A stretch of 64,000 nt of DNA, from NCBI GenBank assembly GCA_038522085.1, contig JBCBKJ010000008.1, positions 23,371 through 87,370 on the forward strand. Reading direction: 5' to 3'. Positions within the stretch are counted from its first letter, which is position 1; each line of letters opens with the position of its first letter. Positions 6,803 through 63,657 of the stretch are shown here, piece after piece. Source of the stretch: Chloroflexota bacterium. GTDB lineage: Bacteria > Chloroflexota > Anaerolineae > Aggregatilineales > Phototrophicaceae. The position numbers and the translations under genes were made by a program. The notes under the pieces are model-generated. The model ran no database searches and was not told the DNA's origin. It saw only the letters and a program-made list of their open reading frames with translations.

Positions 6803-6813
6803 ACCATACCCCT

Positions 6814-14797: not shown

Positions 14798-14897
14798 CGT
14801 GTTATCACCTACTAAACGAAATGAGCTATCCACTTCATATGTTTTGTACATCATGTTAGCATATGCCAGCGCAAGTAAGATAAGGAGTATGTAATAC

Positions 14898-15560
14898 GTG
14901 CAACGCTGGATATGGATGTGCCTATTCATTTTATGTGCATGTGGTGGCACAGGCGAGGATATTATCGAAATTGATTATGAAGGCGACCTCGTTGCGTATG
15001 CAACAGAAGCATCGCAAATACGCGAGGATATTGTTATCAGCCGTACTGATATTGCGTCTACAGTGGAAGCGGGCAATGCTCAAACATCACAATTTGAGCG
15101 TTACAATGACTTGTTACGCAGTACGGTTGTTGTTGCTATTCCGCCAACATCCGATGCGCGTATTGTAGCGAATGATACGATTGGCGCGCTCCCCGTTGAA
15201 GTATATGATTTGTCTGATGGCGAGATGCGCTTTGTGCAGATTGGTCCGGCTGGAGAAATTAATGATGAAAATTGCTTCATCGCCAAACAACAGTTTTTCA
15301 GAACGGATTCAGTTGCTGTATTCATGACAGCAGTCGCGCTTAATTTGCGTGCAGGTACAACAGTTAGTGCTGAGTGGCGCTATGGTGGGGAGCTTGTATA
15401 TTCTAATTCATGGGTCGCACCACAATCCGTACCCTATCAGTGTGTTTCCTTAACAATGCGCCCATCTGATGCTGAGTTTGCGACAGGGAATTGGACGGTC
15501 ACGCTGTTTGTAAATGGCAACCCTGACGAACCCAAGTCCTTCACCATTTTCAGCAACTAG
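14898..15560 (+). CDS. Hypothetical lipoprotein
   Basis: 220 aa. N-terminal MQRWIWMCLFILCACGGTG, a lipobox-like L-C-A-C after a hydrophobic stretch. No recognisable catalytic motifs. Confidence 0.55.
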   Translation: MQRWIWMCLFILCACGGTGEDIIEIDYEGDLVAYATEASQIREDIVISRTDIASTVEAGNAQTSQFERYNDLLRSTVVVAIPPTSDARIVANDTIGALPVEVYDLSDGEMRFVQIGPAGEINDENCFIAKQQFFRTDSVAVFMTAVALNLRAGTTVSAEWRYGGELVYSNSWVAPQSVPYQCVSLTMRPSDAEFATGNWTVTLFVNGNPDEPKSFTIFSN

Positions 15561-34446: not shown

Positions 34447-36096
34447 TCAGATGGTTTCGAGTTTGGCTTTATTACGTCGTAGAAGCAAGCGTATCATATC
34501 TTTGACTTCATCCATGCCCAGTAAAAGCGTAGAAATCAAGAAGACTGCCCCGCCAACGGCAACCTGCACACTTAGCTGTGCAATCGTGTAAAGCAGACGG
34601 TCTTGCAAGCCAAGCATCGCAAAGACTTCCGCAACAGCCACCACAGCAAAGCCCATCACGATACTGGCAACAATTGTTTTACCTGTGGTGATGAGGATAC
34701 TCTTCTCATTGAAGCCATTCCAACGGCGACGACGCAGAACAATAAGCACCAATACTTGAAAAGCGATACCTAATGAATTACTGAGCGCCAGCCACATCAC
34801 ATTTTCTGTGGGTGGACTTTCATTCGTGAGGATACCTGTCAGCCACAGCGCCAAAATGACATTGATAGCCGCCCCAGCGAGCGATGCGTAGAGTGGCGTC
34901 CATGTATCTCTATCCGCATAGAAACTGCGTGCTAGGACCTCTAGCATACTATAGACGATGATCCCTAAAGTGAATGCGCTCAGGGTTGTGTATACCAATT
35001 GTGTGGCGCTAGCGTCGAATGCACCCCGTTCAAGCAGAGATAGTAACGGTTGCCCGACCAGTATCAAGCCCAACGCTGAGGGTAAACTCAAGATGAGTAT
35101 GAACTTGAGTGCGCCAGAGAGTGCATTACGTTTGCCGAAATCGTCTTTCACTTCACTGAGGGCGGCGAGCGTGGGGAAAATGACAATCCCCATCGCCGTA
35201 CCAATGAGTGTCTGCGGAATTTGCATCAAGCGCCAACCCCAATCAAAGGCTGATACGCTCCCTTCACCGAGACGTGATGCAATATTGGTCATGAAGATGA
35301 AATTGAACTGGAAAACGAACAAGCCAATAACACGCGGTAGCATGAGCCGGAAAACTTCCCAGAGCATCGGGTCACGAATACCAAATTCAGGAAACCATTT
35401 TGCCCCATTACGGATGAGTCCGGGAACCTGGATGAGTAAGTGTCCGAGTGCGCCTAAAACCGTGCCGATAGCAACACCGTAAACACCGAATGGCTCTAGC
35501 AAGAATACGACACCGAACAGAATCCCCAAATCGTACATGATAGGCGCGACGGCTGGTAACAAAAATTGATTATGGCTATGCAGAATACTACTGAAAATAC
35601 CACTCACAGAAAAAATAATCGTGCCAAGAAGCAACATCCGCATCATGACGACGGTCTGCTCAAAAGTTTGCGGATTTTCCACAAAACCAGGCGCAATGAC
35701 ATTGGCAACGAGCCATGGCGTAAACATATAAACAACGGCACTGATGATTAAGGCAACTGTAAATACGACGTTGACAAGACGACTCGCAAGCCGATACCCA
35801 TCGACTTTATCTCCCCGTGCAAGAAAACCACTGAAAACAGGTATGAACGCAAAGCCTAACGCGCCACCTGAAATTAAATCTACGATAGTGGCAGGAACGC
35901 GGTTAGCCGTCACATAAGCATCCCATTCGGGTCCTAAGCCAAAAAATTGCGCAATGATAACGGTCTGCCCCAAGCTGATGGCTTTCGCAATCGCAAACAG
36001 CGCCATAAGCATGAGCGTTGACCGCGCAATGTTGTTCATCCGTTTTTGTTTTTCTTCGGAATCGTCCGGTGGGGGTGTGGTGTCGATAGTCGTCAT
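34447..36096 (-). CDS. murJ: Lipid II flippase MurJ (MviN)
   Basis: 549 aa, about 14 TM, N-terminal conserved region RSTLMLMALFAIAKAISLGQTVIIAQFFGLGPEWDAYVTANRVPATIVDLISGGALGFAFIPVFS. Confidence 0.85.
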   Translation of the reverse strand: MTTIDTTPPPDDSEEKQKRMNNIARSTLMLMALFAIAKAISLGQTVIIAQFFGLGPEWDAYVTANRVPATIVDLISGGALGFAFIPVFSGFLARGDKVDGYRLASRLVNVVFTVALIISAVVYMFTPWLVANVIAPGFVENPQTFEQTVVMMRMLLLGTIIFSVSGIFSSILHSHNQFLLPAVAPIMYDLGILFGVVFLLEPFGVYGVAIGTVLGALGHLLIQVPGLIRNGAKWFPEFGIRDPMLWEVFRLMLPRVIGLFVFQFNFIFMTNIASRLGEGSVSAFDWGWRLMQIPQTLIGTAMGIVIFPTLAALSEVKDDFGKRNALSGALKFILILSLPSALGLILVGQPLLSLLERGAFDASATQLVYTTLSAFTLGIIVYSMLEVLARSFYADRDTWTPLYASLAGAAINVILALWLTGILTNESPPTENVMWLALSNSLGIAFQVLVLIVLRRRRWNGFNEKSILITTGKTIVASIVMGFAVVAVAEVFAMLGLQDRLLYTIAQLSVQVAVGGAVFLISTLLLGMDEVKDMIRLLLRRNKAKLETI

Positions 36097-36172: not shown

Positions 36173-37630
36173 TTATTGCAATTCAGCGAGGGCGGTTTGT
36201 GCCGCTTCAAAATTCGGGTTATAGCGCAGTGCTTGACGCAGGTCAGCGATTGCTTCAGAGGTTGCGCCTTGTCCAGCATATGCCATTCCGCGCCAATAGT
36301 AGCTCTCTTCGAGTTCCGACGCTAAGTTGAGGTTGCTATTCGCAAAAGCAATCACATCGCTATAGCGCCCTGTATTGTAATATGCCTCAAACAAGCCAAA
36401 TTGATACCACAAGATGCGCCAAGGCAATGTGTTAATGGAGATAGCACGGTCAAAAGCAGCACTCGCTTCTTCGTAACGTCCCATAGCCGCCCATGATGAG
36501 CCGAGATTATGCCATGCGTAGGCATCGTCTATATTGGCGTTTGCTTCAGCTTGGGCAGTTTCGGCTGCGATGAGCAGGGCTTGGTCTTCGTCCCAATAAT
36601 CACCGAGAATATTGCGAAGTTGCGTCTCTTGCTCATCAGAGTAGACAACAATGAAGGTGCGATTGAAATGTCGCCATGTGCTATCGAGTTCAGCGTATTC
36701 TTGCAAGATACCCGAACCATTAACGCCATTACCTAAGAAACTATCGTAAGCATAAAAGCCGTTGCTACCATCATCATAGGCAACGAGTGCTTGATAGTGT
36801 CCTGTCCATTCGTAGCCCTCAAAATACATACCACGCTCAACAATGACGGGAAAGCCACCCGCGATGAGTGCTTGCAAGAGGTCAACTGTGCCACCTACAC
36901 GATAAATCGCATTCACGCCTGTCTGCTCGTTGACATAATCAACCAACTCTTGTGGACTGACATTTTTATCCTCACGGTTGGGGCGCAAAAAGGATTTGGC
37001 ATAATCTTGGTCTTCTTGCCAACCAAAGTAGCTGAGTGCAGTGGTGATAGTCGCTGGACCACAGTTGTTCCATGTTTGTCGCGCCCAACTAAACCCCGTG
37101 TTGCGATGCGAGGCAGGCAAATTTAGAAAAGCTGTGTTCGCGGAAACGACTTGTGAATTTGTTCCAGCATTCGCGTCAGACGGTAGCGGGGTATTGGTTG
37201 GTAAAGGCGTATTCGTAGGCAGAGGCGTGTTGGTCGGCAAAGGGGTATTCGTCGGCAAGGCAGTGCTTTCTGCGCTGGCTGGCTCACTAGCTGTATCTGG
37301 TTCGCTAGTTGCCACGGTAATGGGTGTCTGTAACAAGTCTAGCGGATTGATGCCCCCTGCTTGCGACGCATCAACTGTTGGGAGTACCCCACCCTCCGGC
37401 GTTGGGTTGCGTTGTAAAAACACATCCATGAATGGCGCATTGTTGATGACACGCACTTGCTGTCCGGCAGTGAGTACATTATTGAATGCCCAAATGCCAG
37501 AGAAGAACCCGATGACAATCAACATAAAGAGAATCATCACGCCCCATAACAAGAATGCTGGCGGACCCTCTGTGCGGTTCGCACTGACGGGCTTCATTTT
37601 TGGTTCCGTTTTATCTTGCGGAAAGGTCAT
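36173..37630 (-). CDS. Membrane-anchored C39-like cysteine peptidase domain + TPR repeat protein with (LPTNTP)x5 linker
   Basis: N-terminal TM (FLLWGVMILFMLIVIGFF), hexapeptide repeats, Peptidase_C39-like motif WNNCGPATITTALSYFGW, C-terminal TPR-like helices (AWHNLGSSWAAMGRYEEASAAFDRAI...). Confidence 0.7.
   Translation of the reverse strand: MTFPQDKTEPKMKPVSANRTEGPPAFLLWGVMILFMLIVIGFFSGIWAFNNVLTAGQQVRVINNAPFMDVFLQRNPTPEGGVLPTVDASQAGGINPLDLLQTPITVATSEPDTASEPASAESTALPTNTPLPTNTPLPTNTPLPTNTPLPSDANAGTNSQVVSANTAFLNLPASHRNTGFSWARQTWNNCGPATITTALSYFGWQEDQDYAKSFLRPNREDKNVSPQELVDYVNEQTGVNAIYRVGGTVDLLQALIAGGFPVIVERGMYFEGYEWTGHYQALVAYDDGSNGFYAYDSFLGNGVNGSGILQEYAELDSTWRHFNRTFIVVYSDEQETQLRNILGDYWDEDQALLIAAETAQAEANANIDDAYAWHNLGSSWAAMGRYEEASAAFDRAISINTLPWRILWYQFGLFEAYYNTGRYSDVIAFANSNLNLASELEESYYWRGMAYAGQGATSEAIADLRQALRYNPNFEAAQTALAELQ
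37182..37260. repeat. 18-bp tandem repeat, about 4.5 copies
   Basis: ggtagcggggtattggtt / ggtaaaggcgtattcgta / ggcagaggcgtgttggtc / ggcaaaggggtattcgtc ...; encodes LPTNTP hexapeptides on the minus strand. Confidence 0.7.
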
Positions 37631-37861: not shown

Positions 37862-38998
37862 ATGCGTAAATATCAGAATCAAATTTTACTCGGAATCATC
37901 GGTGCATTGGCAATTTATATCGGTCTGCTCCTCTTTGCAGATAGCCAAGGGCGCTTGGAAACAGACGGCATCATAGAACAAATTCAATCATTTCCGCTAT
38001 GGCTGATTGTACCGCTTATTTTCTGTCAGCTAATGGTGATTGCATTCCGCTTTTTGGAATGGCATTACTACTTGGGCGTGATTGAAGCACGTCACCGTAT
38101 TAGTGTAGCGAACAGCCTGATTATCTTCGTTGCCTCCTTCACGATGGTGGTTAGTCCAGGTAAAGCTGCTGAACTGCTCAAATCTGTTTTGCTGAAAATC
38201 CAGACAACAGAAAAAGCAAGCGACGATGACGAAAAAGGCAAAGCGGGTGTACCAGTCGCCCGAAGTGCGCCGATTGTGATTGCAGAACGTGTTGTTGATG
38301 GCATTGCAGTCTTATTATTGATGACAGCGACGCTGATTATCGCGGGGGATAACCTCAATTTAGGCACATATGCCGGTATTGATTATGCCGTACTGAGTCG
38401 CACCCTAATTTTCTCGTCTACAGCAATCATCCTGACAGGATTAATCGTCATTCAGATTAAGCCACTCGCGTATTTTTTCCTGAATTTGCTAGAGAAAATC
38501 CCCGTTCTAAATCGTCTGCATCAACCACTCACAGATTTTTATGAAAGCAGCCGTGAAGTTTTTGCCCTGCATCATGTGTTGCTCATGTCGATGGTTGGCG
38601 TCGGCGTTTATATATCTAGTGCGGCGGGCTTTGTGATTGTACTCTACGGCTTCGGCTTAGAAATCACAGGGCAGTTAATCTTGCAAGCATTATTTATCGT
38701 CGGTGTATCATCCGCTATCGGGGCATTGAGCTTTGTCCCCAACGGCGCAGGCGTGACTGAAATATCGAATACGGGCATGTTGCTGGCATTGGTCGCGCCC
38801 ATTCAGCCGATGGTCACATTGCCACTCGCGGCAGCAGCAGCACTCATACAAGGCTTTTTCCACAAGTGGTTCAGAGTATTGGCAGGCTTGCTAGTCGCGT
38901 TTTTGTTTCGCAACCGTTTGTTTGGCGAAGATTTAGAAGCCGAACTCGCCAACGCGGATGCTGAAAAAGACAGTGTAGCTATCTCAGCTACGGCTTAA
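37862..38998 (+). CDS. UPF0104/flippase-like (lysylphosphatidylglycerol-synthase-TM-type) integral membrane protein
   Basis: 378 aa, about 8 TM, conserved SPGKAAELLKSVLL segment typical of this family. Divergent from the C39/TPR gene. Confidence 0.55.
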   Translation: MRKYQNQILLGIIGALAIYIGLLLFADSQGRLETDGIIEQIQSFPLWLIVPLIFCQLMVIAFRFLEWHYYLGVIEARHRISVANSLIIFVASFTMVVSPGKAAELLKSVLLKIQTTEKASDDDEKGKAGVPVARSAPIVIAERVVDGIAVLLLMTATLIIAGDNLNLGTYAGIDYAVLSRTLIFSSTAIILTGLIVIQIKPLAYFFLNLLEKIPVLNRLHQPLTDFYESSREVFALHHVLLMSMVGVGVYISSAAGFVIVLYGFGLEITGQLILQALFIVGVSSAIGALSFVPNGAGVTEISNTGMLLALVAPIQPMVTLPLAAAAALIQGFFHKWFRVLAGLLVAFLFRNRLFGEDLEAELANADAEKDSVAISATA

Positions 38999-40480
38999 TT
39001 ACTCCTGCGATGCCGTCGCGTCTACAGTGCTTTCGAGAATCAGTCCGCCAATGCGTGCGGCTTCACTGGCATCGTCGGTATTCTCTAGCACAACCGCAAT
39101 GGCAATGCCTCGATTTTCGGCAACGGTGGTGAAGCCAATGAACCATGCTTGCGTTTCATCACCAGAAACAGCCAATGCAGTATGTCCACCAATCGTTATG
39201 CTCGCGCTAGAAGCAAGCACAGAAGCACTATCGTCTATTTCGACATTACTCAACATCAATTGGCGTAGACGACGGGCGGCTGTTGCTGTCATGAGGGGCT
39301 GGGTTGGCAAATCCGCATCAACCGTAATCCACGCATTTTCAGGTGCTTCTGGCAGACGATAGGCATTCAGCGCGAATGGTTGTGGCGCATTGCCCGCATT
39401 GATGACCGCAGAGGCAACAGTCGCCATATTAAGCGGGTTAATCGTCAAGTCACCTTGCCCTACCAAATCTTCTACTAGTGAAAGCGTCGGTTGATTGGCA
39501 TCAACGGTTGGGGTGCTTTCGGGCGTGGCTTCTTCTGTTGCAGACGACGAAATTTTATCGGTTGTTTCCGGCTCTACGATGAAACCTGCAAGCGTCGGTT
39601 GGGCATCTAAACGAAAAGCACTTACGATATTTTGCAATGAAGTCGGATTGATGTCATTTGCCAGTAGCGAAAATGGCACCGGACAACCATAGGCATAAGC
39701 CTGACTATACGTTAAATCCGGCTGGGGTGGCTCAACAGCACAGGTGAGCGTGCGGTCATCAATCATCAATGGGCGATTCGCATCGGCTGTCAATACATCG
39801 AAAGGCTGATCCGTGAGAATACCTGCAACCATGAGCGGTGTTTGTAGCATGCCACCGGGTTGATATTGCCCTTGTAGAGCGCGATTGAAGAATAAATCGC
39901 CTTCTTGGACAATCAAATTATCCCATTCAGCATCAAGTGTATTCGGGTCGTAAGTCGGCAAACTCATCATCCCTAGCACTGCCCCATCCGGTACACTCAA
40001 TACCACGACTGCCCCTGTACGTCCTGAGAGCGCATCAGCGATAGCCTCCTGTACGTCAAGGTCAAGCGTAAGGCGAACATCTGCACCCTGTGCTGGCAAG
40101 TGCAAGACATTTTGTTCAATGATCGTTGCCAGTGGGTCAGAATCTACTTCACCACGCAGATAATCGTTATAGGCGGCTTCTGCACCTGCAACCCCATAAC
40201 GAAAGCTGAAATAGCCTACGATACTATTCATCGCTTCGTGCGGATACTGGCGCACTGTTTGCTCATCTACAAGAACGGATTCTGCTAAAACGTGATTATC
40301 GGCATCGTAGATACTCCCACGCTGAATCGCAATTTCTGCTTCGACAAGACGCGGGTTATCATCACGGAGCAAAATAGAATCTGCCCCAACGACTGCCCAG
40401 TAACTTGCCGAGCCAACGATAGCAAAAAACGCTAATAACAAGCCAAACATGAGCCGATTAATCTCGCGTGTGAAAGCCAC
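38999..40480 (-). CDS. Class B penicillin-binding protein homologue (PbpA/PBP2-like) with apparently degenerate active-site motifs
   Basis: N-terminal TM + PBP dimerisation region. The conserved context YDPNT...W...NRALQGQY-PG precedes GMLQ where STFK (SxxK) is expected. An IGGHT sequence sits where KTGT is expected. Adjacent to, and abutting, the SEDS gene. Confidence 0.75.
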   Translation of the reverse strand: MAFTREINRLMFGLLLAFFAIVGSASYWAVVGADSILLRDDNPRLVEAEIAIQRGSIYDADNHVLAESVLVDEQTVRQYPHEAMNSIVGYFSFRYGVAGAEAAYNDYLRGEVDSDPLATIIEQNVLHLPAQGADVRLTLDLDVQEAIADALSGRTGAVVVLSVPDGAVLGMMSLPTYDPNTLDAEWDNLIVQEGDLFFNRALQGQYQPGGMLQTPLMVAGILTDQPFDVLTADANRPLMIDDRTLTCAVEPPQPDLTYSQAYAYGCPVPFSLLANDINPTSLQNIVSAFRLDAQPTLAGFIVEPETTDKISSSATEEATPESTPTVDANQPTLSLVEDLVGQGDLTINPLNMATVASAVINAGNAPQPFALNAYRLPEAPENAWITVDADLPTQPLMTATAARRLRQLMLSNVEIDDSASVLASSASITIGGHTALAVSGDETQAWFIGFTTVAENRGIAIAVVLENTDDASEAARIGGLILESTVDATASQE

Positions 40481-41791
40481 TTAGCGTACCTCAGCCGATA
40501 AACGTAAGAGTAGACCAATGATGATAAAACTCGCTAGAAGTGAACTGCCTCCATAGCTCATAAATGGCAAAGTGACGCCTGTCAGTGGCAATAGCTTTAA
40601 TACCCCACCCATGATGAGTAGACTTTGAATGCCGATGAGCATACTCAAGCCGAGCGCAAGCAAACTATAAAAGGGACGGGATTCATGCTTAACGGCAATA
40701 CGCATCCCTCGCATGACGATAATTGCCATTGTCGCAATCATCACGGCAACGCCTAACAAGCCATATTCTTCTGCAAGGGCTGAGAAAATAAAATCAGAAT
40801 GCACCACAGGAATATAGGTCGGTGAACCTTGCCCGATACCTTGTCCAAAAATACCCCCTGCTCCGAACGCCATCAAACTCTGGACAATCTGGTAAGCGCG
40901 TCCATCGGCTTCTAGCCAAGGATTGAGCCAAATATCCACACGCAACTCAACCACAGCGAATAGGTTATAGGCGACAAATCCCGCTACAGCTAATAAGCCC
41001 GCTCCACCCAGCAGAATACTCACTTGCCCGCTAGCGACATACAGCAACACCAAAAAAACAGCGAAAAATAACGCCGCCGTCCCTAAATCCCGTTGCCAGA
41101 CAACGAGTAAAATACTCAAGCCCCACATCAACAAGATAGGACCCAAAATACGAGGCGATAGCCATGCGCGTTGATAACCCATGCCCTGTGCTTTGAGCTT
41201 AGATTGCGTACGCATCGCCGGAAATTGTTCTGAGAGATAACTCGCTAAGAAAATTACTAGAATGACTTTGAGTGCCTCTGATGGTTGAAAAAAGACATTT
41301 CCGAAACCAAGCCACAATTCCGGCGCACCCGCCAAACCAGACGGATTCTGTCCGAGAACAATGGTACTCACGAGCAAGACAATCCCCGTAATCAGCACCA
41401 AATAGCGATACGCACGTAACCAGCGCAAAATCTGTGGGATACGCACGACTACAAGCATCGCGGCGACAGAAATCAGCAACCAAATCGTTTGCCTATCCGA
41501 AAAATTGGGTGCGAGACGGTCTATCAGTACGAGTCCCCATCCGCTGAGAAACATCACCAACGGAAATAGCACAGGGTCACGTAGCGGCAAGAGACGGTCA
41601 AGCACCCATGAACCACCTACCGCACACACTATCCACACAGCAAGATGCCACCAAAGGGCAGTATCGGTAATATCTTGCAATGCCAGCGCCACGAAATTGA
41701 CCAACACAAACGCCCCTGTCAGCCAGAGGAGTTTACGCTCAGTATTCGTGACGATGGTATGTTGGTCTAACGGAATACGATTTTCAGCCAT
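40481..41791 (-). CDS. SEDS-family peptidoglycan polymerase (FtsW/RodA)
   Basis: 436 aa, about 10 TM, C-terminal conserved LPLTGVTLPFMSYGGSSLLASFIIIGLL. Confidence 0.9.
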   Translation of the reverse strand: MAENRIPLDQHTIVTNTERKLLWLTGAFVLVNFVALALQDITDTALWWHLAVWIVCAVGGSWVLDRLLPLRDPVLFPLVMFLSGWGLVLIDRLAPNFSDRQTIWLLISVAAMLVVVRIPQILRWLRAYRYLVLITGIVLLVSTIVLGQNPSGLAGAPELWLGFGNVFFQPSEALKVILVIFLASYLSEQFPAMRTQSKLKAQGMGYQRAWLSPRILGPILLMWGLSILLVVWQRDLGTAALFFAVFLVLLYVASGQVSILLGGAGLLAVAGFVAYNLFAVVELRVDIWLNPWLEADGRAYQIVQSLMAFGAGGIFGQGIGQGSPTYIPVVHSDFIFSALAEEYGLLGVAVMIATMAIIVMRGMRIAVKHESRPFYSLLALGLSMLIGIQSLLIMGGVLKLLPLTGVTLPFMSYGGSSLLASFIIIGLLLRLSAEVR

Positions 41792-41813
41792 GTATATTTA
41801 TCTCAAGCATAAT

Positions 41814-42689
41814 CTACAAACTCAACACCCGCTTCACGACATGATAGAGACGCTCTTTTGCACTCTCAGCAATCATGTTGCGATTCGTCGTCAATGCCAT
41901 TTGCAGAGCCATATGCGAGGATGTTTCGGTATCTAGGTCAATCGTATCCAGTAAGGCAACTAAGGCTTTTTTGATGATTTCGACATTCGCATTCACGACT
42001 TTTCCTACTTGTTCAGCCGTAACTGGTTCTTCGTCTTCGTGCCAAGAATCAAAATCGGTGACATGAGCAATCGAGGCATATGCCATCTCTGCTTCGCGTG
42101 CCAAAAAACATTCCGGCGCAGCAGTCATGCCGATGAGGTCGCAGCCCCATGCACGGAACATATGGCTTTCTGCACGGGTCGCAAAACGGGGACCATCTTC
42201 AATGAGAAATGTCCCACCATCATGCACAGTTGCATCAACCGAATTGAGCGCAGCAATTAGTTGCTCACGCAAATAAGCATCAAAGGGATCAGCGACAGAG
42301 ACATGGGCAATCAACCCTTCTTCGTTGAAAAAAGAGCGTTCGCGGATGCCAATGTTGTAATCAATAATTTGGTCAGGTACGGCAAGATGCCCAGGTGCTA
42401 TGTGTTCACGGAGACTACCGCACGCATTCGCAGAGACAATGAACCGCACGCCGATAGATTTCAGTGCATACATATTCGCCCTCTGAGGGACAAGTGCCGG
42501 ACTGAGGACGTGTCCTGTGCCGTGTCGTGCCAAAAACGCTATCCGCGTGCCTTTGAGCGTGCCAACCATGATAGGATTGCTGGGTTTGCCGAACGGGGTA
42601 TCAATATCGAGCGTGCTAACATCGCTAATATCCGGCAGATTGTATAAGCCAGTGCCACCGATGACCGCTAGCTTGATGGGGTCTGTCAT
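41814..42689 (-). CDS. mtnP: S-methyl-5'-thioadenosine phosphorylase
   Basis: IKLAVIGGTGLY N-terminus, PNP/MTAP family motifs (ARHGTGH, GMTAAPE). 22 nt upstream of the SEDS gene on the same strand. Confidence 0.85.
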   Translation of the reverse strand: MTDPIKLAVIGGTGLYNLPDISDVSTLDIDTPFGKPSNPIMVGTLKGTRIAFLARHGTGHVLSPALVPQRANMYALKSIGVRFIVSANACGSLREHIAPGHLAVPDQIIDYNIGIRERSFFNEEGLIAHVSVADPFDAYLREQLIAALNSVDATVHDGGTFLIEDGPRFATRAESHMFRAWGCDLIGMTAAPECFLAREAEMAYASIAHVTDFDSWHEDEEPVTAEQVGKVVNANVEIIKKALVALLDTIDLDTETSSHMALQMALTTNRNMIAESAKERLYHVVKRVLSL

Positions 42690-42828: not shown

Positions 42829-44910
42829 ATGTTTGGCAAAATGCAGTATCCGAAAGCAAAACGTGTCGATGTGATAGATGACTTTTTCGGCAAAGAGGTC
42901 GCTGACCCCTATCGTTGGCTAGAAGATGCCGATGCAGAAGAAACCGTGGAATGGACACAGGAACAACATGATTTTGCATTCGAGCTACTTTCGACGATGC
43001 CAGGGCGTGAGGCATTCCGTTCACGTTTAACAGAAGTATGGGACTATCCCAAGTATGGCATTCCACGCCAACGGGGTGAGCGACTGTTTTTTACGAAAAA
43101 TGATGGTTTGCAAGCACAGCCGACGCTCTATGTACAAGATGGCGATGCTGAACCGCGTGTTCTGCTTGACCCCAACACCCTCAGCGATGATGGCACGGTG
43201 GCGATGGTCGATTGGCAACCCACTGATGATGGCAAATACCTGATGTACGCCGTATCAGAGAGTGGGCTCGATTGGCGGACGTTCAAAATTCGGGACGTAG
43301 ATACAGGCGAAGATTTATCAGACGTACTCGAAAATATCAAATTCTCGTCTGCGGCATGGCGACGCGATAAGTCTGGTTTTTACTACTCGCGCTTCCCTGA
43401 AGGCACACACGATGAAGGCGAAGATAATCAGAAAGTCTCGCACAATTTATTCTTTCACACACTCGGCACAGAGCAATCCGAAGACCGTTTAGTATACAAA
43501 CATCCCGATTTAGAAGGCGTCAATTTTTGGTCGTATGTCAGTCATGATGACCGCTTTTTGTTCGTGCATGTGACAGGTGATTCATTTGTGTTCAATCGCC
43601 TGTACTATAGTGACATCACGCGAGATGATACCCAGTTCGTTCGCTTATTTGATGAGCTTGATGCCAGTTATGGCGTGGTACATGTAGATGGTGACATCTT
43701 CTATATTTTGACCACAAAAGATGCGCCAAACAAACGCTTGATGGCACTCGATATTAACCAACCTGATAATTGGCAAGAAGTTATTCCAGAAAGTGAAAAT
43801 GTTATCAATGGCGTTGCCTTTGCCAATGACCAGTTCATCATCACCTATATGCAAGATGCCCATCATATTGTAAAAATCTTTGCTAAAGATGGTACGTATA
43901 TCCGTGATATAGAATTGCCAACCATCGGCTCTACCGGATTCAGTGCCGGCTGGGGTAGCTCGCCTACCGATACAAGCATCTTCATTCCGTTCATGTCGTA
44001 TTTGCAACCCCTGAGCATCCTAAAGTACGACTTAGAGTCTAACGAGATGACAACCGTTTTTGATACCTCTGTACCGACATTTGATGTGGATGCCTACGAA
44101 ACAAAACAAGTCTTTTTTGAATCCAAAGACGGTACACGCGTGCCGATGTTCATTACAGCGAAAAAAGGCATCGAGCTAAATGGTGATAACCCAACGATTC
44201 TCTATGGCTACGGTGGCTATGACATCAGCTTGACTCCTGGATATGCGTCTCATCTACCTGTGTGGCTCGAAAATGGTGGTGTTTATGCTGTGGCAAATAT
44301 TCGCGGGGGTGGTGAATACGGCGAATCTTGGCATTTGGATGGCATGCTCGATAAAAAGCAAAACACGTTTGATGATTTCATCGCGGCGGCAGAATGGCTC
44401 ATCGACAATGGCTATACATCCAGCGAAAAACTCGCTATTGAAGGCGGTAGTAACGGCGGTCTGCTAGTGGCTGCTTGCATGGTGCAACGCCCTGACCTCT
44501 ACGGCGCGATATTGTGCCATGTCCCTGTGATTGATATGTTGCGCTTTCAGCATTTCACTGCCGGACGCTATTGGACATCTGAATATGGCGATGCCAATAG
44601 CACCGAAGATCATTTCGACTTTTTGATGCAGTATTCGCCCCTACACAATATCGAAGCGGGTGTGGATTACCCGCCCCTACTCATCATGACCGCTGACCAT
44701 GATGACCGTGTTGTACCTATGCACTCAAAGAAATTCGCGGCGGCACTACAAAACGCCGATACAGAAGCTGAAGATAGTAACAATGTCATCTTGCTACGCA
44801 TCGACACCAAAGCCGGACATGGTATGGGCAAACCAACCGCAAAAATGATTGACCAGCGTGTAGACATTTTCGCCTTTTTAAATGCCCTCTTTGAGATGGG
44901 CGTGAAATAG
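42829..44910 (+). CDS. Prolyl oligopeptidase (S9A family)
   Basis: N-terminal DPYRWLED motif, beta-propeller region, catalytic GGSNGGLLVAAC (GxSxGG), Asp and His (KAGHG) near the C-terminus. Confidence 0.9.
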   Translation: MFGKMQYPKAKRVDVIDDFFGKEVADPYRWLEDADAEETVEWTQEQHDFAFELLSTMPGREAFRSRLTEVWDYPKYGIPRQRGERLFFTKNDGLQAQPTLYVQDGDAEPRVLLDPNTLSDDGTVAMVDWQPTDDGKYLMYAVSESGLDWRTFKIRDVDTGEDLSDVLENIKFSSAAWRRDKSGFYYSRFPEGTHDEGEDNQKVSHNLFFHTLGTEQSEDRLVYKHPDLEGVNFWSYVSHDDRFLFVHVTGDSFVFNRLYYSDITRDDTQFVRLFDELDASYGVVHVDGDIFYILTTKDAPNKRLMALDINQPDNWQEVIPESENVINGVAFANDQFIITYMQDAHHIVKIFAKDGTYIRDIELPTIGSTGFSAGWGSSPTDTSIFIPFMSYLQPLSILKYDLESNEMTTVFDTSVPTFDVDAYETKQVFFESKDGTRVPMFITAKKGIELNGDNPTILYGYGGYDISLTPGYASHLPVWLENGGVYAVANIRGGGEYGESWHLDGMLDKKQNTFDDFIAAAEWLIDNGYTSSEKLAIEGGSNGGLLVAACMVQRPDLYGAILCHVPVIDMLRFQHFTAGRYWTSEYGDANSTEDHFDFLMQYSPLHNIEAGVDYPPLLIMTADHDDRVVPMHSKKFAAALQNADTEAEDSNNVILLRIDTKAGHGMGKPTAKMIDQRVDIFAFLNALFEMGVK

Positions 44911-45702
44911 CTAAAAAGTCGTGCGGGTCGCGCCACCATCAACGGCGAGTGCTGTCCCGTTGATGAATCCAGCGGCGGGTGAACACAAAAAGACTGCCGC
45001 ATTCGCAAATTCCATAGCATCTCCAAGTCGCTTAATCGGGATAGATTGGGCGGCTTTTTCGCGTTCGGTTGCGGGGTCAGTATTATTTTTATCTGCGCGA
45101 GCTTGCATCAGCTTATCGACCCGCGCTGTTTCCGTGACGCCAGGCAAAATGCTATTGAAGCGAATATTCTCTGCACCAAGTTCGAGCGAGAGCGTTTTGG
45201 TGAGTCCGACAACAGCCGGACGAATCGTATTGGACAGTGTGAGATTTTCGACAGGCTGTTTAGCGGCAATCGAGACAACTGCCAACACCGCCGCCCGTGA
45301 TGATTGCTTGAGATGCGGCAAAGCAGGCTTAATGAGATTCACAGCACTGAGCAAAGTGAGGTCAGTAGCACTGCGCCAATCCTCATAATCGAACTGTTCA
45401 AACGTGCCTGCAGGGGGTCCACCTGCGTTGGTGATGAGAATATCCAATCCACCGAGCATAGACACCGCATTATCTACTACTTTTTTTGCAGATTCAGGAT
45501 CAGATACATCAGCGGCATAAGTGAAAACCGCATTACCTGTTGCCGAGTTGATTTCACGCGCTGTTGCTTGCAATTTATCAAGGCTACGGCTGTTGATGAC
45601 GACAATTGCCCCTTCTTGGCTGAACACTTTGGCTGTTGCCGCACCTAAGCCTCCACTCGCCGCCGTGACTAGCACTCTCGCCCCACGCAGACCCAAATCC
45701 AT
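44911..45702 (-). CDS. SDR-family oxidoreductase (FabG-like)
   Basis: MDLGLRGARVLVTAASGGLG Rossmann motif, NAG, catalytic S...YxxxK region. Start placed at the internal Met; the ORF extends to 45717. Confidence 0.8.
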   Translation of the reverse strand: MDLGLRGARVLVTAASGGLGAATAKVFSQEGAIVVINSRSLDKLQATAREINSATGNAVFTYAADVSDPESAKKVVDNAVSMLGGLDILITNAGGPPAGTFEQFDYEDWRSATDLTLLSAVNLIKPALPHLKQSSRAAVLAVVSIAAKQPVENLTLSNTIRPAVVGLTKTLSLELGAENIRFNSILPGVTETARVDKLMQARADKNNTDPATEREKAAQSIPIKRLGDAMEFANAAVFLCSPAAGFINGTALAVDGGATRTTF

Positions 45703-45776
45703 AGCACAATCTCCCATATCTGAAACGAAATAAGAACGAGTATACCATTTTCTAGGGATGTAAAATACAAATGGAC

Positions 45777-46220
45777 TTAGGCATCCAGCGTAATTTTGAA
45801 GTGACTATTACCGATGCTGATGATGTCTTCATCGGTGATGATGATAGGCGAGGAAACGCGGTCTCCGTTGAGGAGTGTACCATTACGACTACTGCGGTCT
45901 TCTAGCCACCAACGCCCCTCTTTGAGGCTTACCAGCGCATGTTCGCCACTGGCAAAATCATCTTGAATGACGATACTGTTGGTGGGCGAACGACCAATGC
46001 TAGTTAGCGGGCGTAACGGAAACGTATCACCTGTAGGGGCGAGCATATTATCAACTTCGATATGCTTGGCAAGCGTGCCATAGGTGCGCCGTGTAATTTC
46101 GACTTGGGCGGCGGCACTACGATAATCACGCCACAGCACAACAAAAAACGCACCCAAAATCAGCATCAAAATGATACCAGAGAGCAAGCGTAACCCAAAT
46201 AATATCAGTGCCATATCCAC
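45777..46220 (-). CDS. FHA-domain membrane protein (FhaB/FipA-like)
   Basis: N-terminal TM (LILFGLRLLSGIILMLILGAFFVVL) + C-terminal FHA (IGRSPTNSIVIQD...SGEHALV...NGTLLNGDRV). Confidence 0.8.
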   Translation of the reverse strand: MDMALILFGLRLLSGIILMLILGAFFVVLWRDYRSAAAQVEITRRTYGTLAKHIEVDNMLAPTGDTFPLRPLTSIGRSPTNSIVIQDDFASGEHALVSLKEGRWWLEDRSSRNGTLLNGDRVSSPIIITDEDIISIGNSHFKITLDA

Positions 46221-46229: not shown

Positions 46230-46994
46230 CTACTCCACCGGTTCGAGGGTTTGCGTCGTGTGATGTGTACCACCTTCAACGACATAAGTGATATTAGTCG
46301 AGCCAATCGTGATGACATCGCCTGACTGAAGTTGATGTTCTGTCACAGGCACATTGTTGACGAGCGTGCCACCACGGCTATTTACATCAAAGAGTGTATA
46401 TGTCCCAAATCGTAAGCGCAATTGCACATGATGCCGAGAGCAATAGGAGTCATCTAATACAAGATGATTATCCGCACTGCGCCCAATGTTGAGCAAGGGT
46501 TCTGTCAGGGTGATTACCCGCGTACCGTTATTGATGATAAGTTGAGGCTTACGAGGTACTTTAGTTTGCTTTGCAGGGATGGGTTGCATTTTTTGCGTGC
46601 TGGCATCCGCATCAACCGTGTGTTTTGCATGCACCTGTACATCCGCCACATCAAGGTCATCATCTGAGACAAAATCGACAACAGGTTCAGCCGCCAAGCG
46701 ATAGCCGGATTGCATCACCAAATCGACAATATGGCTTGATAACGTCGTCTTGAGTTGTGGGAGTGTTGGCTCTAGCTGTTTGGCAATAGATGGATGCATC
46801 ACAATCGTGTAAGCATCCGGCGCAAGCGGACGTTTATCTGCGTCAGGCATAAAGCGCAAGGCATTTTCCATGCTACGCGCAACTTGCATAGCAAGGTCAT
46901 GGGCGCTGACGCGCTTACGAAATAGATTCGTGAATGCCCCTTCCACGAGTTTTTCTAAACGGGCTTCGAGTTTTGCAATGTGTTTTTCATTCAT
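46230..46994 (-). CDS. FhaA-like protein (DUF3662 N-terminal domain + C-terminal FHA domain)
   Basis: N-terminal LEARLEKLVEGAFTNLFRKRV (DUF3662-type) and C-terminal FHA (IGRSADNHLVLDD...SRHH...NGTLVNN). Start set at the internal Met 46994; the ORF extends to 47030. Confidence 0.75.
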   Translation of the reverse strand: MNEKHIAKLEARLEKLVEGAFTNLFRKRVSAHDLAMQVARSMENALRFMPDADKRPLAPDAYTIVMHPSIAKQLEPTLPQLKTTLSSHIVDLVMQSGYRLAAEPVVDFVSDDDLDVADVQVHAKHTVDADASTQKMQPIPAKQTKVPRKPQLIINNGTRVITLTEPLLNIGRSADNHLVLDDSYCSRHHVQLRLRFGTYTLFDVNSRGGTLVNNVPVTEHQLQSGDVITIGSTNITYVVEGGTHHTTQTLEPVE

Positions 46995-47082
46995 AGTTGC
47001 ATTATAGACGAGAGCCTTACTCACTGACAATGAACGAGTTATAGCGTTGGGTGAACGTCACTATCTGTTAAGAATTGAGAAA

Positions 47083-56869: not shown

Positions 56870-58108
56870 ATGGCAGACACACACGCAACAGATATAAACA
56901 TCAACAAGTTATCTGCGGATGATTTTAAAGCACTGGATAACATCATCAGTGAGCGCGTCGAAGATGGCACAACCCCTGCTGTTGCGCTGGCTATTTTTCA
57001 GCGCGATACGCCACTATTAAACGCGGCGTGGGGTTCACTTGCCCCCGATGAACACACGCAAGCGACACAAACTAGCACGCTATTTGACCTCGCATCATTG
57101 ACAAAACTCTACACAACTATCGCATTTTTATCGTTGGTGAGCGAAGAAAAACTCTATCTGCATACGCCTGTCGTCAATGTGATACCTGAATTCGGGAAGA
57201 TCAACCCACGTCCGATGGGTGGTGGACAAGACCCGCATAGCAAAGAGCTTTTTCCTGTAAACGAGGATTTTGCAGGACAATCCGTTGATGTGGCACTCGT
57301 CAATTGCTTTCACTTGCTGACGCACACATCGGGGTTACCTGCTTGGCGCGATGTGTACACCGTTGCCGATGCACCCGTTGAACCACCAGCGGATGACCCA
57401 CTCACACAATCAGAACGCTGGTCGAAGGCAATCGAACGGCTAGTTTCCTATGATTTCATTGCCCCACCCGAACACGCCGTTATCTATAGCGATATTGGTT
57501 TGATGTTGCTAGGCGAAATTGTCCGGCGTACACACGACGAAAATGGCACGCTGGAAGATGCTATCAAGGCGCGGGTGCTAGGGGATCGTTTCCCAAACAC
57601 GCTGTTCAATCCACTGAGAAAGGGTTTTACACAAGAGCAAATCGCCCCTACCGAACAAGATACAACGTGGCGTCAGCGTAGGGTACATGGCGAAGTTCAC
57701 GACGAAAACGCGCACGGTGTCGGAGGCATCGCCGGACATGCTGGCTTGTTCTCGACAGCGATGGAAGTTGCCCTGCTTGGCAATATTTGGCTGAACCATA
57801 GTGAGCGTATGCTACGCATTGACCCCGAACTGGCTGGTGCATCCGTTGAACTACAAGCACAGACAGGCGCAGATAGACGAGGCTTAGGCTGGATGCTCAA
57901 ATCTGCTGAAAATTCGTCGGCTGGGGATTATTTGAGCGCATCTAGCTACGGGCATACCGGTTTCACAGGAACATCACTCTGGATTGACCCTGACAACAAA
58001 TTATCTATTGCCCTGCTGACGAACCGTGTTTACAACGGACGCGAGCACATCGGCATTCATGCACTCAGACGTGCTGTTCACGATGCGATTGGTAAAGCAC
58101 TCACGTAA
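56870..58108 (+). CDS. Serine hydrolase of the beta-lactamase/PBP4* (class C-like) family
   Basis: SxxK motif in FDLASLTKLYTTIAF. 412 aa. Downstream HTGFTG (KTG-like) region. Confidence 0.75.
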   Translation: MADTHATDININKLSADDFKALDNIISERVEDGTTPAVALAIFQRDTPLLNAAWGSLAPDEHTQATQTSTLFDLASLTKLYTTIAFLSLVSEEKLYLHTPVVNVIPEFGKINPRPMGGGQDPHSKELFPVNEDFAGQSVDVALVNCFHLLTHTSGLPAWRDVYTVADAPVEPPADDPLTQSERWSKAIERLVSYDFIAPPEHAVIYSDIGLMLLGEIVRRTHDENGTLEDAIKARVLGDRFPNTLFNPLRKGFTQEQIAPTEQDTTWRQRRVHGEVHDENAHGVGGIAGHAGLFSTAMEVALLGNIWLNHSERMLRIDPELAGASVELQAQTGADRRGLGWMLKSAENSSAGDYLSASSYGHTGFTGTSLWIDPDNKLSIALLTNRVYNGREHIGIHALRRAVHDAIGKALT

Positions 58109-61134: not shown

Positions 61135-63657
61135 TTAGTTGCCAATCGTTTCGTCTACAGGAATTTCGGTAATGTCTTCAATGAACGCACCGTTGAAAGT
61201 GACACTCACAAATTGCGATGAAATCCAACCAACTTCACCCTCGAACGTGACCTGCAACCATTCAGCGTCTGCTGTGCGGGCTTCGACAATCAAGAATGTA
61301 CCACTCGGAATCTGTACAATCACTTCACTGTCTACATTTGGTGTGCGGCGCAAGTTGAGATTCGCATCCGCATCCAAGATGACCTCTGCCACGTAAGCAT
61401 CGACTTGTGGGTCTGGCGTTGCCACAGTAACAGGTGCGGCACCAGCCGTCACTTGCCCGATGGCATCTTCTGTCGATTCTTCGATGAGATTTAGCAAAAT
61501 CAAGTCTTCAAGCGATTCATTTTCGCCGTTGAGTTGGTAGTTGATGAAACCTGTACTCACCCAACCGGTGATAACACCACCACTATCTGGTGCATACGAT
61601 ATGAATGCCCAGTCTGCATCAGCAAGTACGCTCTCGACAGGAAGCAAGCCAAGTAATTCAACCCGTGTCCCAAGAGGCAATTGTGCAAGCACTTCGCTGG
61701 CGGCATCAGGATTACGGCGTACATTGAGATTTGCATCCGAGTTGATGTTAATCACCGTTGCCGTCACAAGGTCTTCTTGTTCGCTTGGTGGTGTCACATC
61801 CGTGTTGAGTGTTTCACCTGGAATATTACCAGCAACTGTTTCAAGGTCACGCAAGCGCACGAAGCCTTCATCGTCAGTAATGATGAGGAATTGGCTGAGT
61901 GTCCATGCGATAACAGACCCACCATCTGGCGTGTTGTAAGTCACGTTCACCCATGTTTCGGATGGGTCAAGGTCTGCGTTTTCATCTTCCAGCAGTGTTA
62001 CAGGGTCAACAAAATCTTCAGCTTCTGGTGGCGGGTCTTGCCCTTCGACCAATGCCACTGGAATCCCTTCACGCCCATTGATAATCAGGCTTGCACCAGA
62101 TGGCGCTTGTGCCAGCACAAGTGCATCCGAACTTGGGAATTGGCGCAAATTAAGGTTCGCACTTGGGTCAAGCGCAACTTCACCTGTGATAACCTCTGGT
62201 GGCGCTTCTGTTGGTGGTGGCAATGCTACTGGCTGGGTTGGCGCGGCAGTTGCTTCTTCAGCCACCGTCTCTTCTTCTGGGCTGGTATCACCTGTATCGG
62301 TTGTTTCGCTGGTATCTGTCGTCGTTGTTGTAGCCAGCGTCACATCACCTGCACCAGGCGCACTTTCGAGTGTGCGTGCAAGTGCGGTTGGGATAACAAA
62401 CAAGCTCGGCGCACCGAAGCTAGAACCATCTAAAACGATGATGTTGTAGTATGTACCACCGTAGAAAACGGTATTTCCAGCATTGAGTGTGGCTTCATCA
62501 TCACCAAGTTCTAGCGTAAACGAGAGTTCACTCACAATTGGATCGTTAGCCGTTGCATCAGACGCATCACCTACTTCAATTTCATCAGCAAAGGTCGTGC
62601 CATCTGCTGATTCGACGGTGACGGTTGCACCATCAATGGTGTTCAACACAGTTGCGACGGCTGTTGTCTCATCTACATCAGTGATGTCATCTTCAAAATC
62701 ATTGATTTCAATATCACCATCTTCGAGATAGGCTGCAATCGTCTGTGCCGCACCTGCTTCAACCTCGATTTCAATATCGCCAAGTTCATCACCGCTTTCA
62801 GCATCGACAAACACAACTTCGTGTTCGCCTTCTGGCAGAGCGATATGTTCAGTTGGGGTTTCTGGGGTAAAGGCTGGAATAATCAGCGTGTCATTGATGA
62901 TAACATCTACCGCAGGACCACCAACGATACCGTGTACAAAGCGCACGAAGCCTGTATCTTCGGCTGGTGCTGTTGCCGCAGATAGTAAGAGCGCACGCGG
63001 ATTACTAGCTGTGCCGTACACAACAGCCATGTAAGACGTATTACTGGTCAAAGCCAAAGAAACATCATCAAGAATTACATCGCCAGACGCCACTGCTGCA
63101 ACATCAACAACATAATTCTGTGATGGCACATCAAATTCGCCAAATTTAACACCATAGCTGATTTCTGGCGCAAGTGGCGTACCCTCTTCTTGCGTTGCAC
63201 CAAATAAATCAATCGGCTCGGCAAGCGCCACACCCACATCAGGACCACCTGCAATGGCATGGACAATCGCCAAACGTGCAACACCAAAGTTGCTCGTGGT
63301 GACATTATCTATGAACGCATCGAATTGAGGGCTAGCAGGATTGGAAGCGATGAAAGTTGTCGCAGACCCGCCACTCACAGAAATAGCTTGTTCCCATAAG
63401 GCAGTTTGCAAGCCTGCCGCCGTTGCCGTTACAACATGGTCGCCGGCTGGTACAGAAATATAAGTAGTCGCTTCGCTATAGGCAATATTACGCGCAGTGA
63501 GCGTTCCGTTGACGTAAACATCAATCGGCACTGCATCTGGAATAACATGGACAAAACGTACTGATGCGCTGTCCTGTGCGCTAAAACTGCTGACGCCTAG
63601 CAGAAGCAAAAGAAGCGCCACCACACTTTTTGTCACTATAGATGTCAGTCGGGTCAT
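61135..63657 (-). CDS. Large secreted protein: N-terminal DUF4397-type repeats, acidic linker, C-terminal SH3b domains
   Basis: Signal peptide MTRLTSIVTKSVVALLLLLLGVSSFSA. DUF4397-like segments (VRFVHVIPDAVPIDVYVNGT..., VRFVHGIVGGPAVDVIINDT...). SH3b-like segments (NLNLRQFPSSDALVLAQAPSGASLIINGR, NLNVRRNPDAASEVLAQLPLGTRVELLG, NLNLRRTPNVDSEVIVQIPSGTFLIVEAR). Confidence 0.7.
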   Translation of the reverse strand: MTRLTSIVTKSVVALLLLLLGVSSFSAQDSASVRFVHVIPDAVPIDVYVNGTLTARNIAYSEATTYISVPAGDHVVTATAAGLQTALWEQAISVSGGSATTFIASNPASPQFDAFIDNVTTSNFGVARLAIVHAIAGGPDVGVALAEPIDLFGATQEEGTPLAPEISYGVKFGEFDVPSQNYVVDVAAVASGDVILDDVSLALTSNTSYMAVVYGTASNPRALLLSAATAPAEDTGFVRFVHGIVGGPAVDVIINDTLIIPAFTPETPTEHIALPEGEHEVVFVDAESGDELGDIEIEVEAGAAQTIAAYLEDGDIEINDFEDDITDVDETTAVATVLNTIDGATVTVESADGTTFADEIEVGDASDATANDPIVSELSFTLELGDDEATLNAGNTVFYGGTYYNIIVLDGSSFGAPSLFVIPTALARTLESAPGAGDVTLATTTTTDTSETTDTGDTSPEEETVAEEATAAPTQPVALPPPTEAPPEVITGEVALDPSANLNLRQFPSSDALVLAQAPSGASLIINGREGIPVALVEGQDPPPEAEDFVDPVTLLEDENADLDPSETWVNVTYNTPDGGSVIAWTLSQFLIITDDEGFVRLRDLETVAGNIPGETLNTDVTPPSEQEDLVTATVININSDANLNVRRNPDAASEVLAQLPLGTRVELLGLLPVESVLADADWAFISYAPDSGGVITGWVSTGFINYQLNGENESLEDLILLNLIEESTEDAIGQVTAGAAPVTVATPDPQVDAYVAEVILDADANLNLRRTPNVDSEVIVQIPSGTFLIVEARTADAEWLQVTFEGEVGWISSQFVSVTFNGAFIEDITEIPVDETIGN

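Follow-up and report, generated by a model that had tools for sequence, protein, structure and literature searches.

A natural class B penicillin-binding protein lacking its transpeptidase motifs, encoded beside a canonical SEDS polymerase in Chloroflexota

The window analyzed here is a 64,000-nucleotide stretch of the genome of a Chloroflexota bacterium of the family Phototrophicaceae (GenBank assembly GCA_038522085.1, contig JBCBKJ010000008.1, positions 23,371 to 87,370). On its minus strand it carries a three-gene co-directional unit encoding MtnP, a SEDS (for shape, elongation, division and sporulation) glycan polymerase and a penicillin-binding protein of class B (bPBP; below, the PBP) whose transpeptidase (TP) domain has lost its catalytic motifs. 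The genes of this unit and the features of the PBP, including its transmembrane (TM) anchor, are listed below.

41814..42689, minus strand: MtnP (5′-methylthioadenosine phosphorylase), 291 aa, first gene of the unit (TIGR01694)
40481..41791, minus strand: SEDS glycan polymerase (RodA/FtsW family), 436 aa, ATG start, catalytically canonical, translationally coupled to the PBP (PF01098, 260.3 bits)
38999..40480, minus strand: degenerate PbpA-type class B PBP (predicted pseudo-transpeptidase), 493 aa, GTG start (open reading frame, Pfam, AlphaFold2 model, structure matches)
40370..40477, minus strand: cytoplasmic N-terminal tail and single TM anchor helix of the PBP, aa 2–37 (continuous helix in the AlphaFold2 model)
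40124..40321, minus strand: PbpA-type pedestal of the PBP (PF21922), aa 54–119, presumed SEDS-contacting/activating module (Pfam)
39056..40015, minus strand: TP-fold domain of the PBP, catalytically degenerate, aa 156–475 (PF00905)
39842..39853, minus strand: former SxxK motif, now G210-M-L-Q213 (nucleophile Ser to Gly, general-base Lys to Gln; alignments)
39740..39742, minus strand: C247, probable disulfide partner of C266 (β-hairpin lid tether; conservation and the M. tuberculosis PbpA parallel)
39680..39688, minus strand: former SxN motif, now G265-C266-P267 (alignments)
39479..39580, minus strand: disordered low-complexity Ser/Thr/Glu/Pro-rich insert, aa ~301–334 (model confidence, conservation)
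39176..39184, minus strand: former KTG motif, now H433-T-A435 (alignments)

The open reading frames and their spacing, as given in an earlier reading made from the letters of the DNA (the sequence-only reading), were borne out by the list of open reading frames and inspection of the DNA. The SEDS stop codon directly abuts the PBP start (...TAA GTG...), which leaves a 0-nt gap at the DNA level, and 22 nt separate the MtnP stop from the SEDS ATG. A GAGG element is present ~8 nt 5′ of the PBP GTG, and this start is supported by the conservation of N-terminal residues E6, I7, R9 and L10 among homologues. Promoter matches in the operon region were no more frequent than in shuffled sequences, and a terminator scan of the same region, which returned weak intragenic terminator-like matches only, added nothing to the operon call.

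The PBP is assigned by structure to the PbpA subfamily of class B PBPs, since the TM anchor, the PF21922 pedestal (44.6 bits, cutoff 27) and the PF00905 fold (71.8 bits, cutoff 22.1) are all present. It scores below all NCBIfam equivalog cutoffs (pbp2_mrdA TIGR03423: 132.7 bits vs 455), while MtnP passes its equivalog test (TIGR01694: 284.1 bits, cutoff 274.85). The AlphaFold2 model of the PBP, built from the family alignment, has a mean pLDDT (predicted local distance difference test score) of 87.4 and a pTM (predicted template modelling score) of 0.85, and comprises a long N-terminal TM helix (residues 2–37), the pedestal, the TP domain and one disordered insert. The best Foldseek matches of this model were the PbpA proteins of Atopobium, Eggerthella and M. 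tuberculosis (target-normalised template modelling scores of 0.78–0.81, E ~1e-27), and the predicted structure thus points to retention of the TP fold.

To locate the catalytic positions, the PBP was aligned (phmmer) to the PbpA-type structures of Eggerthella (4mnr), Atopobium (4jbf/4ra7) and M. tuberculosis (3un7). With high posterior confidence in each case, P-G-G210-M-L-Q213 of the PBP lies opposite P-G-S-T/S-F-K at the SxxK site, G265-C-P267 opposite S-S/C-N at the SxN site, and G-G-H433-T-A435 opposite G-K-T-G at the KTG site. Both losses described in the sequence-only reading were therefore confirmed: that of SxxK (Ser to Gly, Lys to Gln), whose codons it had placed at about 39840–39855 (residues 210–213 occupy 39842–39853), and that of KTG. 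The loss of SxN had escaped it.

A profile-profile comparison between 46 sequences of the degenerate family and 7 sequences of the nearest canonical family gave a probability of 100% (E = 1.3e-82), and all three motif sites paired column for column. A search of this alignment for an alternative Ser or Lys near the former active site found none. Since the motif columns align one to one, the SxxK serine has been lost rather than displaced, and the motif loss proposed from the sequence was upheld. An identical PBP gene is present on an independent metagenome-assembled genome (MAG) contig of the same species (L010), which excludes an assembly or sequencing error. As judged from these alignments, the PBP is devoid of the acylation machinery, with SxxK, SxN and KTG all gone.

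The degeneracy is common to ~360 homologues with identities down to ~31%, originating from Anaerolineae, Ardenticatenia and Candidatus (Ca.) Thermofontia (three NCBI classes); the substitutions are thus shared by orthologues, a point that the sequence-only reading had left for checking. All of the best 120 database homologues (120/120; 45–99% identity; Phototrophicaceae, Anaerolineae and Chloroflexota MAGs) are degenerate. When 1.84 billion cluster representatives were searched exhaustively, 439 matches fell below 1e-30, of which the best 150 (to ~31% identity) are degenerate except for four. The most divergent subclade supplied 119 more sequences (Ca. Promineifilaceae, Ardenticatenaceae, Ca. 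Leptofilum, Anaerolineales and Anaerolinea sp.), every one of them degenerate (119/119); Leu occupies the nucleophile position in 100. The nearest catalytically intact relatives were found in Dehalococcoidia and unclassified Chloroflexota. A scan of the GTDB genome collection with the PBP alone returned two distant Oscillospiraceae loci only.

In a neighbour-joining tree, the 137 sequences without the SxN Asn form a single clade with zero canonical members inside it, and all fully canonical sequences (27/27) fall outside. The Asn is retained in 0/137 sequences of this tree set and in 0/119 of the divergent subclade; C-P is the signature of the clade. Other catalytic residues persist sporadically among the 137 members (KTG-Lys in 2, SxxK-Lys in 1 and SxN-Ser in 6), and the former catalytic positions vary across the clade, the nucleophile position being G/S/T/A/L, the SxxK-Lys position Q/E/Y/H and the KTG-Lys position H/Y/Q/F. 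Such a mosaic of residual residues would be typical of drift after loss of function, and the variability favours loss over a re-tooled site. The placement of all Asn-less sequences in one clade indicates one ancient inactivation of the DD-transpeptidase/penicillin-acylation site, apparently in the ancestor of Anaerolineae, Ardenticatenia and Ca. Thermofontia. Outside the degenerate clade, one otherwise canonical PbpA (P0257) carries S-T-F-T in place of S-T-F-K, which could reflect a partial degeneration that arose independently, or a quirk of the alignment or the sequence.

To gauge selection on the PBP, its codons were compared with those of a relative at 69% identity (L011). Synonymous sites are saturated in this pair (proportion of synonymous differences, pS, ~0.75), as in every available pair except one identical pair, so that a formal ratio of non-synonymous to synonymous rates (dN/dS) is not computable and dN is reported against saturated dS. 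The dN values were 0.24 for the pedestal, 0.17–0.21 for the TP domain and 0.57 for the disordered insert, the fastest segment, with 0.156 for the SEDS gene as comparator. Since its dN is low against saturated dS, the TP domain is under purifying selection.

Over deeper divergences, the TP domain is clearly less constrained than the pedestal. Pairs matched for a pedestal identity of ~42% have a TP identity of 0.33 in the degenerate clade vs 0.49 in canonical relatives, and the ratio of TP to pedestal identity falls from 1.14 in canonical relatives to 0.80 in the degenerate clade. Likewise, PF00905 scores are 178–219 bits for canonical relatives vs 68–94 bits for degenerate members. In the pedestal and juxtamembrane region, eleven residues (N42, R44, R54, G55, R77, G89, Y90, E101, L108, G110 and G132) are 93–100% conserved among 131 deep degenerate members, and these are common to canonical PbpA too. 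The conserved residues specific to the degenerate clade are Q207, P267 and W384. The least conserved segment is the insert at aa ~301–334, in which residues 306–327 have a pLDDT below 50. It lies inside the TP domain, differs in length among relatives and corresponds to structured sequence in canonical PbpA.

Two cysteines, C247 and C266 (the latter being the x-residue of the former SxN), are 99–100% conserved in the degenerate family. Canonical relatives and M. tuberculosis PbpA carry S-C-N plus an upstream Cys, and in M. tuberculosis PBPa (3un7) the x-residue of SxN tethers a β-hairpin lid over the active site by means of a disulfide (PMC9974482). The S-C-N origin and this disulfide mark the C247/C266 pair as a structural staple that was inherited, and not as a new nucleophile; that the pair is retained suggests that cleft and lid still keep their architecture.

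The neighbouring SEDS protein is intact in its catalytic signatures. QPSEALK, WQRDLG, HSD333FIF and LPLTGVTLPFMSYGGSS align to the structures of P. aeruginosa FtsW (8bh1) and of RodA, and correspond to the canonical signatures QPSExxK, WQRDLG, H-S-D333-F (with the conserved catalytic Asp) and LPxTGxTLPFxSYGGSS. The same signatures recur in the SEDS partners of five relatives, as well as in three fusion proteins described below. The proposal of a canonical FtsW/RodA neighbour was therefore correct at family level; the protein scores under both subfamily cutoffs (FtsW TIGR02614, 256 bits, cutoff 337.5; RodA TIGR02210, 203.5 bits, cutoff 336.7).

The contexts of relatives, obtained by exact-protein look-ups, revealed that SEDS and PBP genes are adjacent in 10/10 cases examined. 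Moreover, three independent 50%-identity clusters (P0221, P0241 and P0254; ~905 aa) consist of full-length SEDS::PbpA-pedestal::degenerate-TP fusions, one of which was verified on a 40-kb contig (L007, 10001–12736) in an FhaA-FhaB-SDR-MtnP context (SDR, short-chain dehydrogenase/reductase). In these proteins the last SEDS helix is connected to the TM anchor of the PBP by a cytoplasmic linker of ~25–35 residues, an arrangement that is topologically coherent. Fusions of this type are classic evidence for two proteins working as a 1:1 complex. Natural single-chain SEDS::PbpA fusions with a degenerate TP domain are also potentially ideal for structures of SEDS-bPBP complexes.

The wider locus includes the following genes.

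46230..47030, minus strand: FhaA, with FhaA_N (PF12401, 67 bits) and FHA (PF00498, 68.3 bits) domains
45777..46220, minus strand: FhaB/FipA-like protein with an N-terminal hydrophobic TM helix (sequence) and an FHA domain (PF00498, 68.1 bits)
44911..45717, minus strand: SDR, between FhaB and MtnP in the cluster (open reading frame)
42829..44910, plus strand: prolyl oligopeptidase of family S9 (PF02897 and PF00326)
34447..36096, minus strand: MurJ lipid II flippase (PF03023, 273 bits), also found downstream in L003–L005

FhaA and FhaB are thus encoded upstream of, and co-directionally with, the adjacent SEDS-PbpA pair. In relatives, the contiguous co-directional order is rpsF-ssb-rpsR, a SurA/PpiC-like gene, FhaA, FhaB, SDR, MtnP, SEDS and PBP, followed 3′ of the PBP by an LPG_synthase_TM gene, a C39-like protein with tetratricopeptide (TPR) repeats and MurJ. 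The cluster from FhaA-FhaB to SEDS-PBP is contiguous in L003–L005, L007 and L008. All FHA-type loci of the degenerate clade (L003, L004, L005, L007, L008 and L011) have MtnP directly upstream of SEDS, and an adh_short (SDR) gene occupies the matching position in L003–L005, L007 and L011. The S9 gene, an opposite-strand insertion between SDR and MtnP that splits the ancestral cluster in the window, also occurs in the closest relatives (L009 and L011) but not in L003–L005, L007 and L008. The SDR and MtnP genes take the place held by the PstP phosphatase in Actinobacteria; a methionine-salvage enzyme has become fixed in a cell-wall operon.

The actinobacterial counterparts in M. tuberculosis are Rv0016c (PbpA) and Rv0017c (RodA), situated in the fhaA-fhaB-pstP-rodA-pbpA-pknA-pknB cluster. 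Catalytically intact relatives of the window PBP are themselves encoded in FhaA-FhaB-SEDS-PbpA clusters, one of which (L006) has an adjacent gene with Pkinase and PASTA domains, and homology to the actinobacterial module is therefore supported. Neither Pkinase nor PP2C domains were detected among the window open reading frames scanned, and kinase and PP2C domains were likewise absent within ±10 kb of the FHA-type degenerate-clade loci. The gene order of relatives, the clusters of intact relatives and these domain scans together sustain the resemblance, noted from the sequence, to an actinobacterial fha-rodA-pbpA module lacking the kinases and phosphatase.

A different setting was found in Ca. 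Leptofilum (Promineifilaceae; L013, 6865–11350), in which the SEDS-pseudoPBP pair follows a 599-aa bactofilin in place of FhaA, FhaB and MtnP. This arrangement suggests that the same dead-PBP synthase operates there under a different cytoskeletal scaffold. Comparison of the bactofilin and FHA contexts identifies the SEDS-PBP pair as the invariant unit, placed under different morphogenetic scaffolds.

Two further conserved neighbours of the PBP in relatives are also present in the window. A convergent LPG_synthase_TM (MprF flippase-like) gene lies at 37862–38998 (plus strand), and the product of a gene at 36173–37630 (minus strand) is Peptidase_C39_2-like and anchored in the membrane, has TPR repeats and a linker rich in Pro and Thr, and could, as an envelope peptidase, act on the same wall.

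Two jobs are ascribed to class B PBPs, namely activation of their SEDS partner and cross-linking of the SEDS product. The polymerase activity of FtsW needs its bPBP, including the bPBP TM helix (10.1101/358663). PBP2b of B. subtilis and SpoVD of C. difficile, when made TP-dead, still function with their SEDS partners if another bPBP cross-links in trans, a result read by its authors as allosteric SEDS activation (PMC12713402). On the evidence of sequence and gene context, the window PBP is probably a natural pseudo-transpeptidase kept as an obligate partner or activator of its SEDS protein, with another enzyme performing the cross-linking. It shows the features of a pseudoenzyme, being a homologue of an enzyme family that has no catalytic motifs and is conserved under purifying selection. 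The PBP keeps what such a role requires, namely the TM helix, the conserved pedestal and tight coupling to an intact SEDS, but no element of acylation. From what is established for the bPBP family, the TM helix and the juxtamembrane pedestal would bind SEDS and license or activate lipid II polymerization. The folded inert TP domain, with its lid stapled by C247-C266, may serve in wall positioning, in ligand or partner binding, or in docking, and the nascent glycans would be cross-linked in trans by a class A PBP, another bPBP or an L,D-transpeptidase. A partner/activator role predicts both selection beside an intact SEDS and fusion with it, as seen.

Several observations weigh against this explanation. 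The TP domain is conserved and has never been deleted or truncated in the clade, which a role confined to the TM helix and pedestal leaves unexplained. The nucleophile Ser is kept in 20/137 clade members, though these are without the SxxK Lys, the SxN Asn and the KTG Lys. Of the window open reading frames scanned, none encodes a trans cross-linker (an intact bPBP, a class A PBP or an L,D-transpeptidase), and neither a YkuD domain nor a second high-molecular-weight PBP was detected in them. Finally, the PBP is called dead on the strength of its sequence. Purifying selection on the TP domain makes an additional non-catalytic function, beyond that of the pedestal, probable. In the sequence-only reading, a dead bPBP beside its SEDS partner would point to a purely scaffolding or allosteric-activator role; the scaffold/activator part agrees with the motif loss, selection, intact SEDS and fusions, while the word "purely" is an inference, and the TP domain is itself under selection.

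The continued selection on the TP domain could also mean that this domain now works as a sensor or receptor that binds its target non-covalently (un-cross-linked stem peptides, for instance, or lipid II or a regulatory protein), and that binding, and not SEDS activation, is what keeps the PBP. This would agree with the absence of truncation, with the 99–100% conservation of the lid-stapling Cys pair and the C-P signature, by which the cleft architecture is maintained, and with the newly conserved, clade-specific Q207, P267 and W384; moreover, the PASTA kinase adjacent to one intact relative is absent from degenerate-clade loci, so that a sensing function may have been left vacant. However, the former active-site residues vary widely (Ser to G/S/T/A/L; KTG-Lys to H/Y/Q/F), which is unexpected in a conserved ligand pocket, TP-domain constraint is relaxed at depth, and the conservation of the pedestal, the adjacency and the fusions point primarily to SEDS. 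We regard a sensor as the main reason for retention as unlikely, although a sensing TP domain is compatible with an activating partner of SEDS.

Two other readings are weaker still. Some pseudoenzymes have migrated catalytic residues, and the PBP might remain an enzyme, catalyzing transpeptidation or another peptidase reaction by means of a displaced nucleophile or a new C266/H433 pair; C266 is almost invariant, and in the subclade of the window the KTG-Lys position is held by His more often than by any other residue (86/131). A re-tooled C266/H433 site was rejected, since the Cys derives from the ancestral S-C-N lid tether, and the His gives way to F/Y/V in the deep subclade, in which the nucleophile position is mostly Leu. 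The counterpart of C266 in M. tuberculosis PbpA is disulfide-bonded and faces away from catalysis (PMC9974482), the partner C247 is equally conserved, and the profile-profile alignment offers no nearby alternative Ser or Lys; residual enzymatic activity is accordingly very improbable. From the missing motifs, and from a PF00905 score that is low for the family, one could argue for a decaying pseudogene or for a functionless artefact of assembly or annotation. This is hardly tenable and is refuted by the conservation data: the open reading frame is intact in ~360 homologues over three NCBI classes, with dN far below saturated dS, the predicted fold is confident, an identical copy exists in an independent MAG, and synteny, coupling and fusions are conserved.

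The closest characterized protein is M. tuberculosis PbpA (3un7/3lo7), which resembles the window PBP in its TM anchor, short PF21922 pedestal and TP fold, in the Cys of S-C-N and its upstream Cys, and in the gene order FhaA-FhaB-...-SEDS-PbpA. Unlike the window PBP, which has no motif, it possesses SxxK, SCN and KTG and forms β-lactam acyl-enzymes (3upn, 3upo and 3upp). Its cluster contains pstP and kinases, whereas that of the window has SDR and mtnP for pstP and no kinases. Functionally, the nearest parallels are the engineered TP-dead PBP2b(S309A) of B. subtilis, with PBP3, and SpoVD(S311A) of C. difficile, with PBP3, in which an inactive bPBP is likewise needed beside SEDS while another enzyme cross-links (PMC12713402). 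These are laboratory point mutants, whereas the window clade lost all three motifs naturally and long ago, and the loss is fixed over a class-level lineage. With the FtsW-PBP2x/FtsI and RodA-PBP2 pairs (6pl5, 8tj3 and 8bh1) the window pair shares canonical SEDS motifs, a TM helix and a conserved pedestal. The pedestal of PBP2/FtsI is much longer than the PbpA type, and SEDS activation by the window PBP is proposed by analogy. Single-chain SEDS::PBP fusions occur in the degenerate clade, unlike the two-protein FtsW/RodA pairs.

Pedestal-only bPBP-like proteins without a TPase domain have been reported, Chloroflexota included (PMC12516126). They are likewise unable to cross-link, but have lost the whole TP domain, while the window PBP keeps one that is folded and selected. 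That census of bPBP and SEDS proteins works at domain level and does not report motif-less TP domains (PMC12516126), so that the window PBP would count in it as an ordinary active bPBP. Public records similarly name members of the family "penicillin-binding protein 2", "peptidoglycan D,D-transpeptidase" or "peptidoglycan glycosyltransferase". Searches of the literature, in which subscription-only papers were not covered, turned up no account of a bPBP clade naturally devoid of the motifs.

Prior evidence that SEDS activation can be a stand-alone job came from engineered point mutants, and here the same separation appears to be natural, ancient and present in hundreds of lineages. The degenerate clade therefore offers a natural system in which the bPBP surfaces needed for SEDS activation and the contribution of an inert TP domain can be studied, and in which one may ask how polymerization is coupled to cross-linking when the two activities reside in separate complexes. 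It also predicts that part of the wall-synthesis machinery in abundant wastewater and sediment Chloroflexota is not a β-lactam target. A broader conjecture, possible but doubtful, is that SEDS has been uncoupled from DD-transpeptidation throughout the lineage: the sole cognate bPBP would be a pseudo-enzyme, the filamentous cells would cross-link solely by class A PBPs or L,D-transpeptidases, and the TP domain would have been repurposed for wall binding or regulation. Were this true, the lineage would constitute a natural separation-of-function experiment for bPBPs, and its SEDS machine would be intrinsically β-lactam-insensitive.

Some other genes of the window were also inspected. A serine β-lactamase-fold protein (PF00144, 412 aa) is encoded at 56870–58108 (plus strand). 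Its S76-L-T-K and H362-T-G motifs are intact, a signal peptide is not obvious, and the protein probably acts in the cytoplasm as a serine hydrolase or esterase, not as a cross-linker of the wall. SH3_3 domains are present in large secreted or membrane proteins, possibly wall-binding ones, encoded at 15617–17317 (plus strand), 17411–19576 (minus strand) and 61135–63657 (minus strand); one of the three also contains Peripla_BP_6 and CARDB domains and one has three DUF4397 repeats. Positions 3752–14950 are occupied by a small non-ribosomal peptide synthetase cluster composed of an acyl-CoA dehydrogenase, a stand-alone AMP-binding enzyme, a C-A-T (condensation-adenylation-thiolation) module, a C-A-T-TE (with thioesterase) module, and a convergent 4′-phosphopantetheinyl transferase.

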